In this document: piece after piece, positions 13,407 to 19,933 of the stretch
Position numbering within the stretch: the first letter of the stretch is position 1
How the letters are laid out: the number at the start of each line of letters is the position of its first letter
From: an uncultured Actinomycetes bacterium
GTDB lineage: Bacteria; Actinomycetota; UBA4738; HRBIN12
Direction: 5' to 3'
DNA: 64,000 nucleotides
NCBI GenBank assembly: GCA_963704725.1
Contig: OY969934.1
Coordinates: 896,001 to 960,000, forward strand
Translations under genes and position numbers: made by a program
The notes under the pieces: model-generated
Seen by the model: only the letters and a program-made list of their open reading frames with translations
Told to the model about the DNA's origin: nothing
Database searches by the model: none

Positions 13407-13429
13407 CCGCCGTGGAAGCGCTCGCGGGA

Positions 13430-16400
13430 ATGCCCACGCAGGGAGCGTGCGAGCGCTGCGGCGGCGACAACTCCCCACGAGCCCGGTTCTGCCAGCACTG
13501 CGGTTCGGCGCTCCCCTGGGACGACCCGGTCGAGGGCGGCGCGCCCGGCGAGCTGGACGCGTCCCTCCCGGACGCCGGGTTCGAACCGGCCGATGCCGCC
13601 CCGATCGTGACCGCCGTCGTGTGCGAGCTCTCCGTGGAACCGGCGACGGATGGCGACGTCGATGGATGGGGCGCCGCACCCGCGCCCGAGGTCTCCCAGG
13701 AGACGCTCGACGTCGCCCGCGAGACCCTCGGTCGGTTCGGCGCGGCGGTCGAGGATCTCCCCGGCGCGGCCGACACGCTGGCGGCGGTGTTCGGGCCGGA
13801 GCCGGGGGACGGTGACGGGCCGATCATGGCCGTCCGCGCGGCCGACGAGCTCCGCCGGACCTTGGAGGGCGGCGCGGTTCGCGTCCGCGCCGGCGTGGGC
13901 ACCGCCGAGATCGTCGGCGAGGGGCGGGGCGACGAGACCCTGTGGCGGGAGCGCGTGGTGGACCTTGCGACGGGCCTGCAGCGCAGGGCGGCCGTGGGAG
14001 AGGTCATCGTGGCCGACGGCGTGCTCCGCCGGATCCACGGCGCGGCCGAGGTCGAGCCGGTCGACCCGTACGCGCGGATCGACGGGGACGGTTCCACGGG
14101 GCCGGTCCGGCTGCTCCACGTCGATCCCGATCCACCGACGGTGTGGATCGGGTGGCCGTCGCTGGCGGGACGCGACGCGGAGCGGGATCGCATCCGCTCG
14201 GCGTTCGCACGTGCCGTGGCCGAGCGGATCGGTGTGGTGGTGCGGATCTTCGGAGACCCGGGCGTGGGCAAGAGCCGGCTGGCCGAGGAGTGCCTGCGCG
14301 AGCTCTCGGCCGACGGATCGGCGCGCACGGTGTCCGTGCCGTGGGGCCCGGCAGCCGAGCCGGGCGGCCCGTCCTCGCTGGCCGCACTGGTCGAGGTGGT
14401 CGCCGGTCTCACCCCGTCCGCCGATGCCGACCGGGTGCGAGCCGGGGTGGACGGCCTGCTCGAGGGGCGCCCCGACGCCGACCGCGTGGCGGCGCGACTC
14501 CTGCCGGCCCTCGGCGTGGCCGGGGCCGCCGATGCGCAGGGGACGGGGTGGGCCCTCGGACGCTTCCTCGAGGCCGCGGCCTCGGAGCTGCCCCTGGCCG
14601 TCCTCGTGGAGGACTGCGACCGGGCGGTGCCGTGGTTCCTCGAGCTCCTTCGCTCCGCGGTCGTGCGCGCCCGGAGCCCGGTCCTGGTCCTGGCGACGGG
14701 GGCCGCCGACGGGTGGCCGACCGCATGGGAACGCGAGCCGGTCGAACAGCTCCGGATCGATCCGCTCGGTCCGGAGGCGATGGGCTCGCTCCTGAACGAC
14801 CTCCTGCTCAACCCCGACACGCCGGCATCCGCCCGCGATGCGCTGATCGCCGCCTCGCACGGCAACGCGTTGCAGGCCGAGCATCTGGTTGCGGCGCTCG
14901 TCGACCGGGGCTTCCTCCGGTGGCACCATCGCCGGTGGGTTCCCGTCGAGGATCTCGAGCTCCCCGCCCCGGACCTGCGCTCGCTCGTCTCCCTTCGCCT
15001 GCAGGACCTCGAGCCGACCGAGCGCGCCTGTCTCGGGCTGCTGGCCGTGGCCGGAGCCGAGATCCCCTCGGGGCTCGTCGAGGAGCTGGTACCGAACGAC
15101 GACGACGCCTCCATCCGCGACCGCCTGGCCTCGCTCGTCGCCAAGCGCTTCCTCCGGGCCGAGACCGACGCAGAGCAGGAGTCCTACGTCTTCCATCACG
15201 AGCTGGTGCGCGACGTCGCCCGGGCCGAGGTCCCGCCCGAGACCGGGTCCGAGGTCCACGAGCGGTGCGCGCTGTGGCTGCAGGAGCGATACGGGGCGCG
15301 GCTGTGGCGCCACGCCCAGGCGATCGCGGCTCATCTGGAGGCCGACGTGCGGTTCGGCCTTGAGCGGGGTTCGGCCGTGGGCGACGCCGGGCGCCGGGCC
15401 GCCGACTTCCTCGGCTCGACGGCGGAGATCCTCTCGGCGCTCGGCGACGAGGAGGGGAGCTTGGCGATCCTGGAGCGCGCCCCCGGACTGCTCGATCCGG
15501 ACGACCCGACCCGGGCGGGGACCCTGCTCCGCACGGCGACGGCGGTCGCCGCCTCGGGCCGGTCCACCACCGCGGATCGGCTCTCGATCCAGGCGGCGCG
15601 AGCGGCGCGCGAGACGGGGGACGGCGCGACGGACGCACGGGCGCGGCTGCTCAGGGCCGTGCTCGCGGACGGAGGACGGAGCTACGGTCGGATGGAATCG
15701 ATCTGGGAGGTCGCGGAGCAGGCCGAGATCGCCTGCCGGGACGCCGAGGACGACGCCGGCCTGTCGGAGGCATGGGCGGCCCGGGCGGCGGTCCATCGCC
15801 GATGGGGGCACTGGGCGGCCGCCGCCGACGACGCGGAACGGTCCGCGGACCACGCCGCCCGAGCCGGGCTCCTGCACGAGGAGTCCGAGGCGCTCCGGAT
15901 GCTGGTCCGGTGTCTCGAGGGATCGCCCGCGCCGATGGAGGAGTCGATCGATCGATGCCGGGCGGTGCTGGCACGGGCCGGTGGCCGGAGGCAGGTGGAA
16001 GAGGAGGCGTCCGGGGTCCTCGCGATCCTGCTGGCCCGCCACGGCTCGTTCGAGGAGGCCGAGCGGCACGTCGCCGCGGCCCGGAGCGCCGCCGAGGAGT
16101 CGGAGCCGGGGACCGGTCTCGCGCGCGCCCTGCATCGCGCCGCCGCTGTGGAGACCCTGGCGGGACGGCTCGAGCGGGCCGAGGAGCTCCTGGTGCAAGC
16201 TCGCGATGTGGCGGTCGGGTCGGCGGACGAACGGACCGGAGCGGCGATCGGCGCCACGCTCGCCCACGTGATGCTCGACGCGGGGCGCGCCGAGGAGGCT
16301 CGGCAGCTCCTGGAGGAGGTGGAGCGGACCGCGGCCGCGGACGACGTGGTCACGCAGGTGGTCTGGCGCTCGGGCCGGGCCCGGGCGCTCGCGTCCTTGG

Positions 16401-16924
16401 AGCAGACGGAACAGGCCCGTGAGCTCGCCCGCCAGGCGATCCGGCTCGCCGAGCAGACGGACCTCATGGACCTGCGGGCGCGCGCCCTGCTCGCGCTGGC
16501 CGAGGTGCTCCGGGCGGAGGGTCGCACCAACGAGGCGGCGGCGTTCGCGCGCCGCGCCCTCCGGGCGCTCGAGCGGCGGGGAGCCACGGTCCCGGCTCAG
16601 CAGGCCCGGTCGGTCCTGGCGTCGCTCGATCGTCCCGCCGCCGCGCTGCCCGACGCGCCCCCGGATGTGCCGGCGGACGGGGATCCCGGCTCGCCCGGGG
16701 ACGAGGTCCCGTCGCCCCCCGAGCCATCGGAGAGGTGGCCGAACGGCGACGCCGACGTCGTCGGTGAGGAGCCGCGGCACTCTCCGTTCGCCGACATCGC
16801 TTTCGGCGGCGGGGGCGACCGGTCACCCGAACCCGCACCCGTGCCGGCGGCCCCGGATCCGGACCCGGAGCCGAGTGGTGACGGGGCGACCTCGAGCTCC
16901 TGGTGGTCGTTCGGGAAGCGCTGA
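13430..16924 (+). CDS. double zinc ribbon + degenerate class III cyclase + STAND AAA ATPase + TPR protein
   Basis: CERC...FCQHCG; cyclase-like 'VRAGVGTAEI'; Walker A GDPGVGKSRL; 'SHGNAL'; 'YVFHHELVRDVA'; helical repeats. Confidence 0.85.
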   Translation: MPTQGACERCGGDNSPRARFCQHCGSALPWDDPVEGGAPGELDASLPDAGFEPADAAPIVTAVVCELSVEPATDGDVDGWGAAPAPEVSQETLDVARETLGRFGAAVEDLPGAADTLAAVFGPEPGDGDGPIMAVRAADELRRTLEGGAVRVRAGVGTAEIVGEGRGDETLWRERVVDLATGLQRRAAVGEVIVADGVLRRIHGAAEVEPVDPYARIDGDGSTGPVRLLHVDPDPPTVWIGWPSLAGRDAERDRIRSAFARAVAERIGVVVRIFGDPGVGKSRLAEECLRELSADGSARTVSVPWGPAAEPGGPSSLAALVEVVAGLTPSADADRVRAGVDGLLEGRPDADRVAARLLPALGVAGAADAQGTGWALGRFLEAAASELPLAVLVEDCDRAVPWFLELLRSAVVRARSPVLVLATGAADGWPTAWEREPVEQLRIDPLGPEAMGSLLNDLLLNPDTPASARDALIAASHGNALQAEHLVAALVDRGFLRWHHRRWVPVEDLELPAPDLRSLVSLRLQDLEPTERACLGLLAVAGAEIPSGLVEELVPNDDDASIRDRLASLVAKRFLRAETDAEQESYVFHHELVRDVARAEVPPETGSEVHERCALWLQERYGARLWRHAQAIAAHLEADVRFGLERGSAVGDAGRRAADFLGSTAEILSALGDEEGSLAILERAPGLLDPDDPTRAGTLLRTATAVAASGRSTTADRLSIQAARAARETGDGATDARARLLRAVLADGGRSYGRMESIWEVAEQAEIACRDAEDDAGLSEAWAARAAVHRRWGHWAAAADDAERSADHAARAGLLHEESEALRMLVRCLEGSPAPMEESIDRCRAVLARAGGRRQVEEEASGVLAILLARHGSFEEAERHVAAARSAAEESEPGTGLARALHRAAAVETLAGRLERAEELLVQARDVAVGSADERTGAAIGATLAHVMLDAGRAEEARQLLEEVERTAAADDVVTQVVWRSGRARALASLEQTEQARELARQAIRLAEQTDLMDLRARALLALAEVLRAEGRTNEAAAFARRALRALERRGATVPAQQARSVLASLDRPAAALPDAPPDVPADGDPGSPGDEVPSPPEPSERWPNGDADVVGEEPRHSPFADIAFGGGGDRSPEPAPVPAAPDPDPEPSGDGATSSSWWSFGKR

Positions 16925-16980: not shown

Positions 16981-17319
16981 TCAGCCCTCGGTTACGACGG
17001 CCGGGAGCTCGGAGACGAGCGGGTGATCGAGCCCGAGCGCGTCGAACGCCACCGCTCCGCCCGGCGCACCGAGCCCGCTGACGGTAGGACCGAAGAACTC
17101 GCGCTCGACCTGCGCGTAGTGCTGCCATTCGGGGGGCAGGTCGTCCTGGTGGAAGATCGCCGTCACCGGGCACACCGGCTCGCACGCACCGCAGTCGACG
17201 CACTCGTCGGGATGGATGTAACCCTTGCGGAGCCCGTCGTAGATGCAGTCGACCGGACACTCGTCGACGCACGACCGGTCGTGCACGTCGACACAGGGTT
17301 CCGCGATGACGTACGCCAT
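16981..17319 (-). CDS. fdxA: 7Fe ferredoxin ([3Fe-4S]/[4Fe-4S])
   Basis: 'MAYVIAEPCVDVHDRSCVDECPVDCIY...IHPDECVDCGACEPVCPV'; AAGGAGG RBS. Confidence 0.95.
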   Translation of the reverse strand: MAYVIAEPCVDVHDRSCVDECPVDCIYDGLRKGYIHPDECVDCGACEPVCPVTAIFHQDDLPPEWQHYAQVEREFFGPTVSGLGAPGGAVAFDALGLDHPLVSELPAVVTEG

Positions 17320-17527
17320 GGCGCCTCCTTTATCGGTGAGCCTTCGCAGACCACGGTAAGGGGCGGGCCGGCAACGGCATCCCAACGTGAGGCAATGGAT
17401 CGGGAAAGAACGCTCGGGACGTCAGCCCGACGCGTCGGTGACCGCGTACAGGCGCCACCCGGGTAGGCACGCCCTTGGGGGCGTGCTCGCCCCGGTCGTC
17501 GATCCCGCCGACGCCCTCGTCGCGCTC

Positions 17528-18079
17528 TCAGCCCTTGGGCCCGGGGATCCCGAGTGGTCGTCCGTTGAGGGTCGCGGTCAGGTCCGTCGGGACCGCGGTC
17601 CGGAAGGTCTGCGCCGCATGACACGCCCGCTCAGCGTGCGCGACGAGCCTGGCCACGTCCGGCTCGGGCGCGGGGCTGCGGACCTCGAGGTGGAACGTGA
17701 CGTTCTGGAACGCGCCCGGCGGACCTCCGAGATCGAACTTGTCCGCGACGCTGAACGACGCCCGCACGTCGACCTCGGCGTCCTCGATCTCGACTTCATA
17801 CAGTGGCGAAAACTTCGCCAGCTGGGTCAACAGTCAGAAGGCCGCACCCGCGACGACGTACTGCAGCGGCGCGGGAGCGAGGTCGTCGCCCCCTCGCTCG
17901 GCCGGCTCGTCCGACTCGATACGGAACCGCCCGATCCGGCCGGTCATGTGCAGGTTCCGGTCGATGCGCGCCACGGCCCGCTGGGTGAGCACCGGCACCT
18001 GCTTCGTGTGTTCGCGGCTCTCCTCGTAGGCTCGCCGCATCTTCTCCAGGTCGACCCGGCCGGTCGGCTCGTCGCCCAT
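17528..18079 (-). CDS. OsmC/Ohr-family protein with in-frame UGA at the first catalytic Cys position (probable selenoprotein, Sec82, 183 aa)
   Basis: ORFs 17834-18079 and 17528-17830 are in the same frame: '...SDEPAERGGDDLAPAPLQYVVAGAAF-UGA-LLTQLAKF...AERACHAAQTF'; GGAGGA RBS. Confidence 0.85.
17790..17830 (-). promoter_or_regulatory. bacterial SECIS-like hairpin
   Basis: After UGA: TTGAC-C-CAG-C-TGGCGAA-GTT-TTCGCCA-CTG-TATGAA-GTCGA; 7-bp upper stem, apical loop starting with G 21 nt after the UGA. Confidence 0.75.
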
Positions 18080-18234
18080 GTCGTCCTCCCCCCTCTCGAC
18101 GCGCTCACTGCGAGCGAGCAGCCTACCCCGGCGAAGGATGCCACCTGCGCGGCGGCACCCGGGCCCTCCCTTCGGACGCGGCTCGGCGGCCCCGGAAGCC
18201 CCGGCTTGACCGGCGCATGCGGCTCGTGGTTTGG

Positions 18235-18278
18235 TTGGTCTGACAAACAGGTCAGCAGACGGTCTGAGACGGTCTGAG
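18235..18278. promoter_or_regulatory. putative FadR operator array
   Basis: TTGGTCTGACAAA (FadR-type TGGTC-N-GACCA-like), palindrome CAGACGGTCTG, tandem AGACGGTCTG x2, all in the divergent osmC/fadR spacer. Confidence 0.6.
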
Positions 18279-18330
18279 TCAGTCTCGATGACCGTCCGCC
18301 GACTTCAGGGGAACTCGTCCGAACGAGGCG

Positions 18331-19059
18331 GTGGGGGTGCAGCAGCAGTTCGGGCCGATCGAGCGACGCAAGGTCTACGAGCTCGTCGCCGATCGCCTGG
18401 TCGAGGAGATCTCGGCGCGCCGGCTCAAGCCCGGCGACCCGATCCCGGCCGAGCGGCAGCTCGCGGAGACCCTGTCGGTCGGCCGCTCCTCGATCCGCGA
18501 GGCGCTCCGGATGCTCGAGTCCCGCGGCCTGATCATCTCCCTCGGCCACGGCGCCTTCACGGTGGCCGAGTATGGGAACCCGCTCAACGCGTCGCTCGCC
18601 CTGCTCGTCGAGATGCGCCACGGCGACCTGCAGGAGCTGTTCGAGGTGCGCAAGGTGCTCGAGGTCGAGATGGCCGGCATCGCGGCGGAGCGGAGGTCCG
18701 AGGTGGACCTGGAGCGCATGCGCCGGGCCATCGAGGCCATGGACGAGGGGATCGGCGTGGCCGACCGCTACATCGCCGGCGACCTCGAGTTCCACCAGGC
18801 GGTGGTGGCGGCGACCGGCAACCGGATCGCGCGCTCGGTGATGGAGGCGATCCGCGACGTGATGCGCCTCGCGCTGTTCGAGATCTACCGGATCCCCGGC
18901 AGCCCCGAGCGGTCGATGGAGCAGCATCGCCGGATCCTGGAGGCCGTCGCGCAAGGCGATCCCGATCTGGCCCGCGAACGCGTCCGCGAGCACCTGGTCC
19001 GTGTCGAGAGCGAGATCGTCGCCCCGCCGCACGCCGGGGAGGACGGGGCCGATGGCTGA
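18331..19059 (+). CDS. FadR/GntR-family transcriptional regulator
   Basis: 'LKPGDPIPAERQLAETLSVGRSSIREAL'; FCD domain 'DLEFHQAVVAATGN...QHRRILEAV'. Confidence 0.95.
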   Translation: MGVQQQFGPIERRKVYELVADRLVEEISARRLKPGDPIPAERQLAETLSVGRSSIREALRMLESRGLIISLGHGAFTVAEYGNPLNASLALLVEMRHGDLQELFEVRKVLEVEMAGIAAERRSEVDLERMRRAIEAMDEGIGVADRYIAGDLEFHQAVVAATGNRIARSVMEAIRDVMRLALFEIYRIPGSPERSMEQHRRILEAVAQGDPDLARERVREHLVRVESEIVAPPHAGEDGADG

Positions 19060-19933
19060 GCTCGGGTTCGTCGGGCTCGGAGTGATGGGGGGGCGGATCG
19101 CCAAACGCCTCCTCGACGCCGGACACCGCGTCACCGGCTTCAACCGCACGGCCTCCCGGGCCGCCTGGCTCGTCGACGCGGGGATGACGCCGGCCCGTTC
19201 GCCGCGGGAGGCGGCCGAGGCGGCCGACATCACGTTCTCGATGGTGACGAACACGACCGCGCTCAGGGCCGTCGTCGGCGGGCCGGACGGCGTCGTTGCG
19301 GGGCTCGGCCCCGGGAAGCTCTACGTCGACATGAGCACCGTGAGCCCGGCCGAGAGCCGGGAGATCGCGGGGCACGTCGCGGAGACCGGCGCCCGGATGC
19401 TCGACGCGCCGGTCTCCGGGAGCGTCGTCACGCTGGAGGAGGGCCGGCTGTCGATCATGGTCGGCGGCGAGGCCGAGGACGTCGAGCGCGCGATGCCGGT
19501 GCTCCACGACATCGGTCCCAAGGTGACGCACGTCGGCGGCAACGGCCAGGCGGCGCTCATGAAGATCGCCTCGAACCTGAACCTGGCCGTGCAGATGGTC
19601 GCGTTCAGCGAGGCGGTCCTGCTGGCCGAGAAGGGGGGCATCGCCAGGGAGACCGCGGTCGAGGTCCTCGTGAACAGCGTGATCGCCTCGCCGATGGTCA
19701 AGTACCGCGGCCCCTTCGTCCTGCGGGAGCCGGACGAAGCGTGGTTCGACGTGAACATGATGCAGAAGGACCTGCTCCTCGCGCAGGAGGCGGGGCGCCG
19801 GCAAGACGTCGTGCTGCCGACCACCGCTGTGGCGAACGAGCTGCTCACGGCGGCGCGCGCGATGGGACTCGAGAAGCACGACTTCGCGATCGTGTTCGAC
19901 GTGCTCGCGCACCTGTCGGGGACGAAGCGGTGA
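19052..19933 (+). CDS. beta-hydroxyacid dehydrogenase (3-hydroxyisobutyrate/tartronate semialdehyde reductase family)
   Basis: 'GFVGLGVMGG', 'DMSTVSP', 'LDAPVSGS', 'MKIASN', 'QKDL'. Confidence 0.92.
   Translation: MAELGFVGLGVMGGRIAKRLLDAGHRVTGFNRTASRAAWLVDAGMTPARSPREAAEAADITFSMVTNTTALRAVVGGPDGVVAGLGPGKLYVDMSTVSPAESREIAGHVAETGARMLDAPVSGSVVTLEEGRLSIMVGGEAEDVERAMPVLHDIGPKVTHVGGNGQAALMKIASNLNLAVQMVAFSEAVLLAEKGGIARETAVEVLVNSVIASPMVKYRGPFVLREPDEAWFDVNMMQKDLLLAQEAGRRQDVVLPTTAVANELLTAARAMGLEKHDFAIVFDVLAHLSGTKR

Follow-up and report, generated by a model that had tools for sequence, protein, structure and literature searches.

A putative OsmC-family selenoprotein gene with an in-frame UGA codon and a covarying SECIS-like hairpin in a high-GC actinobacterial genome

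One minus-strand locus in the window (the whole stretch of DNA that was analysed, 64,000 nucleotides of contig OY969934.1) most probably encodes a single 183-residue selenoprotein of the OsmC superfamily, in which UGA at codon 82 would be recoded by means of a SelB-bound hairpin. We put the probability of this reading, with a redox role for the protein included, at about 0.93. An open frame across the UGA, membership of a known protein family, alternation of Cys and Sec codons among relatives, a covarying hairpin, four genes for the selenocysteine (Sec) machinery and a second TGA-containing gene were all observed, and from these data we infer that Sec is actually inserted at codon 82. An earlier note on this DNA had proposed an OsmC-family selenoprotein at this place; our analysis supports that proposal, and none of the refutation tests named there went against it.

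The reading frame and its protein family

The open reading frame lies on the minus strand at 18079..17528, with an ATG start at 18079..18077 and a terminal TGA at 17530..17528. It is interrupted by a single in-frame TGA, 17836..17834, in the context AAF-U-LLTQ. Under genetic code table 11 the locus yields two ORFs of 81 and 100 amino acids, the second from a TTG at 17830, and these had been described in the earlier note as joining in frame over TGA 17834-17836. Indeed, one minus-strand frame is open across the TGA, with a read-through product of 183 residues (...AGAAF-U-LLTQ...HAERACHAAQ...). The second Cys, said to be intact in AERACH, is C153, encoded by TGT at 17623..17621; the coordinates and features given in that note were all correct, on the minus strand. 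The features of the gene are as follows.

18085..18089, minus strand: GGAGG ribosome-binding site, 5 nt ahead of the ATG, read directly from the sequence
17528..18079, minus strand: whole coding sequence of the predicted OsmC-like selenoprotein, 183 residues plus terminal TGA
17834..17836, minus strand: in-frame UGA, codon 82, predicted to be read as selenocysteine (U-L-L-T) from the sequence and the orthologous loci
17804..17820, minus strand: predicted SECIS hairpin, here with a 7-bp stem and a GUU triloop at 17811-17813 (-8.1 kcal/mol and covariation)
17805-17819, minus strand: 6-bp conserved part of the SECIS stem, from comparison of TGA forms
17810..17812, minus strand: codon 90, the sole TTT of the gene, which gives loop U25 and U26 and stem U27
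17621..17623, minus strand: codon 153, TGT, the second conserved Cys (in HAERACHAAQ) and putative resolving Cys

A scan of positions 17300-18400 returned 0 sigma-70 promoter sites and one terminator-like site, at 17430..17414 on the minus strand.

The read-through protein was compared with family models. Pfam OsmC (PF02566) matched residues 64-167 with 49.8 bits against a gathering threshold of 27.5, and since this domain spans the TGA, neither half-ORF is a whole domain. The NCBIfam model NF041052, 'OsmC-related (seleno)protein', scored 146.8 bits on the protein against a curated cut-off of 95, and 138.4 bits at the locus in a six-frame search of the genome. The Ohr model TIGR03561 scored 17.9 bits, far below its cut-off of 88.85, and the protein is therefore not filed as an Ohr.

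Searches against solved structures placed the UGA within the fold. Of the solved structures, PDB 3cje matched the family profile best by sequence (E 1.9e-14); the Ohr 6mjn matched with E 1.4e-6. Both alignments pair residue 82 with the first conserved Cys and C153 with the second, so that the UGA stands at the first catalytic Cys position of OsmC and Ohr proteins, as had been claimed. Proteins of this type have two conserved redox Cys columns, one per helix, which are occupied here by U82 and C153; C153 is invariant in the family alignments A2 and A4. The entry 3cje is a structural genomics 'OsmC-like protein' whose name states no function. Its G-C-V-M-T-Q and G-C-F align with A-F-U-L-L-T-Q and A-C-H of the protein studied here, from which it differs in being a Cys form. 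An AlphaFold2 model built with 20 sequences had a pLDDT of 81.9 and a pTM of 0.75 and contained a predicted helix, residues 11-27, within about 30 extra N-terminal residues. The top listed PDB matches of this model in Foldseek were all of the OsmC/Ohr type, the best being 1lql (E 6.4e-10). The Cys-based Ohr/OsmC reductases 6mjn, 1n2f, 1qwi and 1zb9 share the fold (Foldseek probability 1.00, TM-score 0.57-0.74 on the target), and both of their conserved Cys columns align with U82 and C153. They differ in having Cys where Sec is predicted here and are only 12-25% identical to the present protein, to which their activity is extended by analogy. A Glu in the 'NPEQ' stretch of Ohr is catalytic in that enzyme; where the HMM aligns it, the protein has Leu.

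OsmC-like selenoproteins had been said in the earlier note to be already reported, and this is correct. Table 3 of the Sargasso Sea selenoproteome (Zhang, Fomenko & Gladyshev 2005; PMC1088965) gives an 'OsmC-like protein' family of selenoproteins, assigned to COG1765, whose motif is UxxT and for which a SECIS is predicted, and a UxxT OsmC-like selenoprotein is listed again in two reviews (PMC9312934, PMC13188914); the curated NF041052 model covers the same family. The stretch U82-L-L-T85 fits the UxxT redox motif and, together with the NF041052 score, makes the protein a member of this known family. Judged from its sequence, the locus thus adds a copy to a family known since 2005, for which a curated model exists, and does not represent a system of a new kind. 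What it has in common with the family as tabulated in 2005 and modelled in NF041052 is the Pfam domain, the U-x-x-T motif, Sec replacing the first conserved Cys, and a downstream hairpin with a G in a small apical loop. Nothing differs in kind, although the genome here is a soil-type, high-GC actinobacterial one and the protein carries about 30 additional N-terminal residues.

By analogy with the Cys-based enzymes, the protein would be a two-residue hydroperoxide or other redox enzyme that uses U82 and C153. Sec82, on the long helix, would attack the substrate, and C153 would resolve the resulting selenenic acid to a selenenylsulfide, as the two Cys of OsmC and Ohr suggest. The titles and abstract openings of papers listed as naming both 'OsmC' and 'selenoprotein' contained no biochemical study of an OsmC-like selenoprotein, and the peroxidase-type mechanism is therefore drawn from Cys-based OsmC and Ohr.

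UGA and Cys codons in relatives and the hairpin after the UGA

Scanning one genome for each species yielded 46 related loci, which with 10 from genome searches and the own locus made 57. The alignment covered residue 82 in 52 of these (42 with TGA, 10 with TGC or TGT) and did not reach it in the other five. We then defined as orthologous those loci with at least 44% identity, with one duplicate record dropped and the own locus included. In this set of 36 loci the column held TGA in 33, the own locus among them, and TGC in three (L079, L080 and L085). The alternation of Cys and UGA that the earlier note had proposed to look for in homologues is thus present: UGA occurs in 32 of the 35 relatives and TGC in the other 3. 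The locus is a further, well-supported case of a selenoprotein subfamily with more Sec forms than Cys forms. Full-length Cys forms are also present in protein databases.

The Cys form L079 has no hairpin, unlike L085, a TGC ortholog in which most of it is kept (L085:2226-2285, GGCGC-AGUUC-GCGCC). This retention suggests that Sec was replaced by Cys recently in L085.

Public protein sets contain 103-residue C-terminal pieces that start right after the Sec column and other, N-terminal pieces that stop at AGAAF, which agrees with the expectation that standard pipelines would split the gene. For annotation, the locus is better entered as one gene than as two hypothetical ORFs; many public gene calls of relatives stop short at this codon. 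Four JGI metagenome gene calls (P0003, P0004, P0005 and P0025), 59-85% identical to the protein, have W where Sec is predicted; the most probable cause is a gene caller that translated TGA as Trp on short contigs.

We also looked for TGC or TGT at the codon itself in other sequence data. Metagenome runs were compared as contigs, which covered parts of the stretch. Contigs from three further, independent studies (X2, X3 and X4), 90-99% identical to the window, had no letter that differed at 17834-17836.

The hairpin (UGGCGAA-GUU-UUCGCCA, 17820..17804) directly follows the TGA, with 20 nt between the UGA and the loop; the stem TGGCGAA/TTCGCCA and the GTT loop are as first described. It falls within all four constraints given for bacterial SECIS elements in the legend to Fig. 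2 of PMC13188914, namely a loop of 3-9 nt on a stem of 4-16 bp, a G in the first two loop positions, a spacing of 16-37 nt and an energy of -7.5 kcal/mol or lower: it has a 3-nt loop, 7 bp, G first and then U, 20 nt and -8.1 kcal/mol. By itself, the hairpin is unremarkable against chance in GC-rich DNA. The 71-nt fold had a z of -0.77, with 39 of 200 shuffles folding equally well or better, and at 159 of the 1051 TGA trinucleotides in the window (15%) the following hairpin passes a simplified version of the published constraints. Given these values, hairpin energy was rejected as evidence. The evidence beyond chance is comparative and strong, and lies in the TGA shared by 33 of the 36 orthologous loci and in covariation of the stem.

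Covariation was analysed in a gap-free alignment of the 33 TGA forms. The loop, G24-U25-U26, was invariant in 33/33, and RNAalifold predicted precisely a 6-bp stem, 18-23/27-32. Compensatory double changes that retain pairing were found at three pairs: 20/30 (CG in 29, UA in 3), 22/28 (CG in 19, AU in 14) and 23/27 (AU in 18, GC in 13). In the stem 90% of cells pair, compared with 28-56% after a shift of the 3' partner by 1-3 columns. The covariation score was reached by 0 of 500 shuffles, a count to be read with the relatedness of the sequences in mind, as this inflates shuffle tests. The covarying positions are also coding, and changes there accompany K/R/Q at residue 89 and S/A at residue 91; co-change at the protein level could therefore add to the covariation signal.

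A lower stem, UUGAC/GUCGA, had also been proposed. It is part of the minimum-free-energy fold of the own sequence but is not conserved in relatives, and neither it nor a 3-bp extension below the bulged C was retained as part of the element. In the helix 13-15/34-36, 59.6% of cells pair; in 9-11/43-45 the figure is 79.8%, mainly through invariant columns, and pair 9/45 itself pairs in 19 of the 33 TGA forms.

Codon usage at the hairpin was compared with that of the 33 high-GC3 open frames of the window (50,871 nt), in which TTT:TTC is 3:436, TAT:TAC 20:268 and GAA:GAG 112:936. The TTT, TAT and GAA codons pointed out earlier as rare are so in these frames. TTT codon 90, the only one in the gene, lies within the hairpin, where it contributes to both loop and stem, and TAT94 and GAA95 lie just 3' of it. 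The hairpin is retained in hosts with a gene GC3 anywhere from 0.47 to 0.95. The lone TTT in the hairpin, this GC3-independent retention and the loss of the hairpin in L079 favour selection at the RNA level.

With the E. coli fdhF element and the bSECIS consensus the hairpin shares its place directly after the UGA and inside the coding region, a small apical loop that starts with G-U, and a spacing of 20 nt, inside the 16-37-nt range. It differs in being very compact, a 6-7-bp stem with a triloop, and in having no lower helix that is conserved in relatives; as a SelB ligand it is a prediction. A SECIS cut down to a 6-bp stem and a GUU loop, constant across a host GC3 of 0.47-0.95, would form a natural series well suited to work on how SelB recognizes a SECIS and on how portable selenoprotein genes are between phyla.

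Two further positions were noted in the alignments. The base after the UGA (column 4 of alignment A3, position 17833) is C in 31 of the 33 Sec forms and A in 2. U17 (17820), just 5' of the conserved stem, is nearly invariant but has a pairing partner in column 33 in only 15 of 33; rather than belonging to the stem it may act as a contact base, by a presumed likeness to the bulged U in the fdhF element of E. coli.

Sec machinery and the reading of UGA82

The own genome, a single contig of 3.45 Mb, was searched for the four genes selA, selB, selC and selD, a check proposed in the earlier note, and all four were found with scores over the curated cut-offs. selA (472.1 bits) adjoins selB (292.7 bits), whose frame includes a C-terminal SelB-wing_3 domain (62 bits), and selD scored 376.3 bits; selA, selB and selD have no internal stops. 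There is one tRNA-Sec, with an Rfam score of 75.1 bits (gathering score 47); ARAGORN also calls it tRNA-SeC, anticodon tca.

The same genome probably has a second selenoprotein gene. At a locus outside the window (L113, G000:C1:1791102-1793136), an ORF resembling formate dehydrogenase alpha contains an in-frame TGA (SCNRT-U-HAPSV), which is followed by a hairpin of -26 kcal/mol for 60 nt. The ORF ahead of it we take to be fdhD-like.

With this machinery, UGA82 would be recoded to selenocysteine according to the standard bacterial model. As the ribosome approaches UGA82, SelB would use its C-terminal winged-helix domain to bind the hairpin 14-30 nt downstream, where the GUU triloop atop the conserved 6-bp stem would present a G-U dinucleotide. 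The Sec-tRNA(Sec) carried by SelB would then enter the A site, competing with release factor 2.

It is also conceivable, if improbable, that UGA82 is read as Cys, Trp or another standard residue, either through near-cognate read-through or by a SelB-dependent non-Sec tRNA. SelB-mediated insertion of Cys by Sec-like tRNAs has been proposed in other bacteria, and the four JGI gene calls with W at the column point in the same direction. Those calls, however, most likely record gene callers that read TGA as Trp, and the gene's own terminal codon is TGA, so the genome uses TGA as a stop. In addition, selA and selD, which are needed solely for making Sec, are present and intact, and the tRNA is a standard tRNA-Sec with anticodon UCA. 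Still less probable is a true stop at the TGA, with the locus being a pseudogene or two independent small ORFs. Table 11 does give exactly such a pair, 81 aa and 100 aa (the latter from TTG 17830), and public gene calls of relatives are split likewise. Against this, 33 of the 36 orthologous loci, which come from several phyla, share the 'nonsense' codon and conserve both halves, the OsmC domain extends across it, a covarying hairpin follows it and the Sec machinery of the genome is intact. The chance that TGC or TGT was turned into TGA by an error of assembly or sequencing is negligible, for although a one-base change would give Cys, as in three orthologs, TGA stands in 32 independent assemblies of relatives, contigs of three other studies are identical at 17834-17836, and the SECIS hairpin would have no reason to be conserved.

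The selenoprotein reading concerns a lineage in which Sec use is widespread. Of 41 genomes from the same genus, family and order, 36 had a selA above its cut-off, among them all 24 of the high-quality ones; in a sample of 401 genomes from the phylum the count was 260, with values for single families between 0/28 and 31/31 (both tallies include unpublished genomes). From these counts Sec use is ancestral in the own lineage and patchy solely at the level of the phylum; the view that it is patchy in Actinomycetota thus holds for the phylum as a whole but not for this order, in which it is near-universal.

The OsmC-like gene itself has a different distribution. A protein query found no ortholog in 40 relatives of the same order, the best match being 29% identical over 127 residues. 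In the phylum sample NF041052 exceeded its cut-off in 7 of 401 genomes, the own genome included, and three of these seven had TGA, one of the three being unpublished. In an unrooted maximum-likelihood tree of 37 rows (omitted were rows below 30% identity, alignments that spanned fewer than 140 residues of the query, L040 as a duplicate, and L037, whose genome is unpublished), the own gene fell in a clade (99/96) with 11 Dormibacterota MAGs and one unidentified bacterium. Five copies from Actinomycetes or Acidimicrobiaceae MAGs formed a separate clade. The clustering with Dormibacterota copies and the lack of an ortholog in the 40 genomes of the same order suggest transfer of the gene across phyla. 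The GC content of each copy matches that of its host locus, so any such transfer would be old.

More tentatively, and in our estimate with slightly less than an even chance, the gene and its built-in SECIS may have crossed between Dormibacterota/Chloroflexota and this actinobacterial lineage and become fully ameliorated, with Sec kept by unusually strong selection over Cys, a strength of selection suggested by the 33 Sec copies among 36 at the species level. If this is so, the compact GUU-triloop hairpin would be a portable SECIS that is accepted by the SelB of distant phyla.

Neighbouring genes and a second OsmC-like subfamily

The neighbouring genes in the window are as follows.

16981-17385, minus strand: small 4Fe-4S ferredoxin, same-strand downstream neighbour; its likely true start is the internal ATG of MAYVIAEPC
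18331-19059, divergent: GntR/FCD regulator gene
19001-19933, plus strand: 3-hydroxyisobutyrate-dehydrogenase-like gene, beyond the regulator

An ortholog of the GntR/FCD regulator was found in 1 of 13 genomes of the same genus, where a gene for an ABC-type substrate-binding protein lies upstream instead, so that synteny did not reveal an insertion point. Among 56 loci of relatives, neither a ferredoxin nor a GntR neighbour was found within 2 kb; the sole neighbour match outside the own locus was a dehydrogenase in L100, with 36% identity over 144 residues.

The selenoprotein gene and the divergent regulator are separated by 250 nt, in which lie a tandem repeat, AGACGGTCTG x2, at 18257-18276 and a 14-nt inverted repeat, 18251-18264 / 18290-18303, that is 86% complementary. 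The repeats at 18251-18303 may be an operator for the GntR/FCD regulator. On the plus strand, 13412-16924 is a 1170-residue ORF with a double zinc ribbon, an AAA_16 ATPase domain and TPR repeats, and is a large regulator of the signal-transduction ATPase type; as usual for GC-rich DNA, long ORFs run antisense to it.

A distant second OsmC-like subfamily, 22-29% identical to the present protein, shares the TGA at this column, there within LCA-U-(T/I)NVS. It is present in one genome of the same genus (G003) and two of the same order (G030 and G039), which have no ortholog of the gene studied here. Its loci carry TGA in L024, L025, L028, L106, L109 and L112 and TGC in L104 and L110. A hairpin, GGCC-AGGAU-GGCC, follows the TGA in five of the six TGA loci; the stretch in L106 is GGCCAGGCTGGCT.
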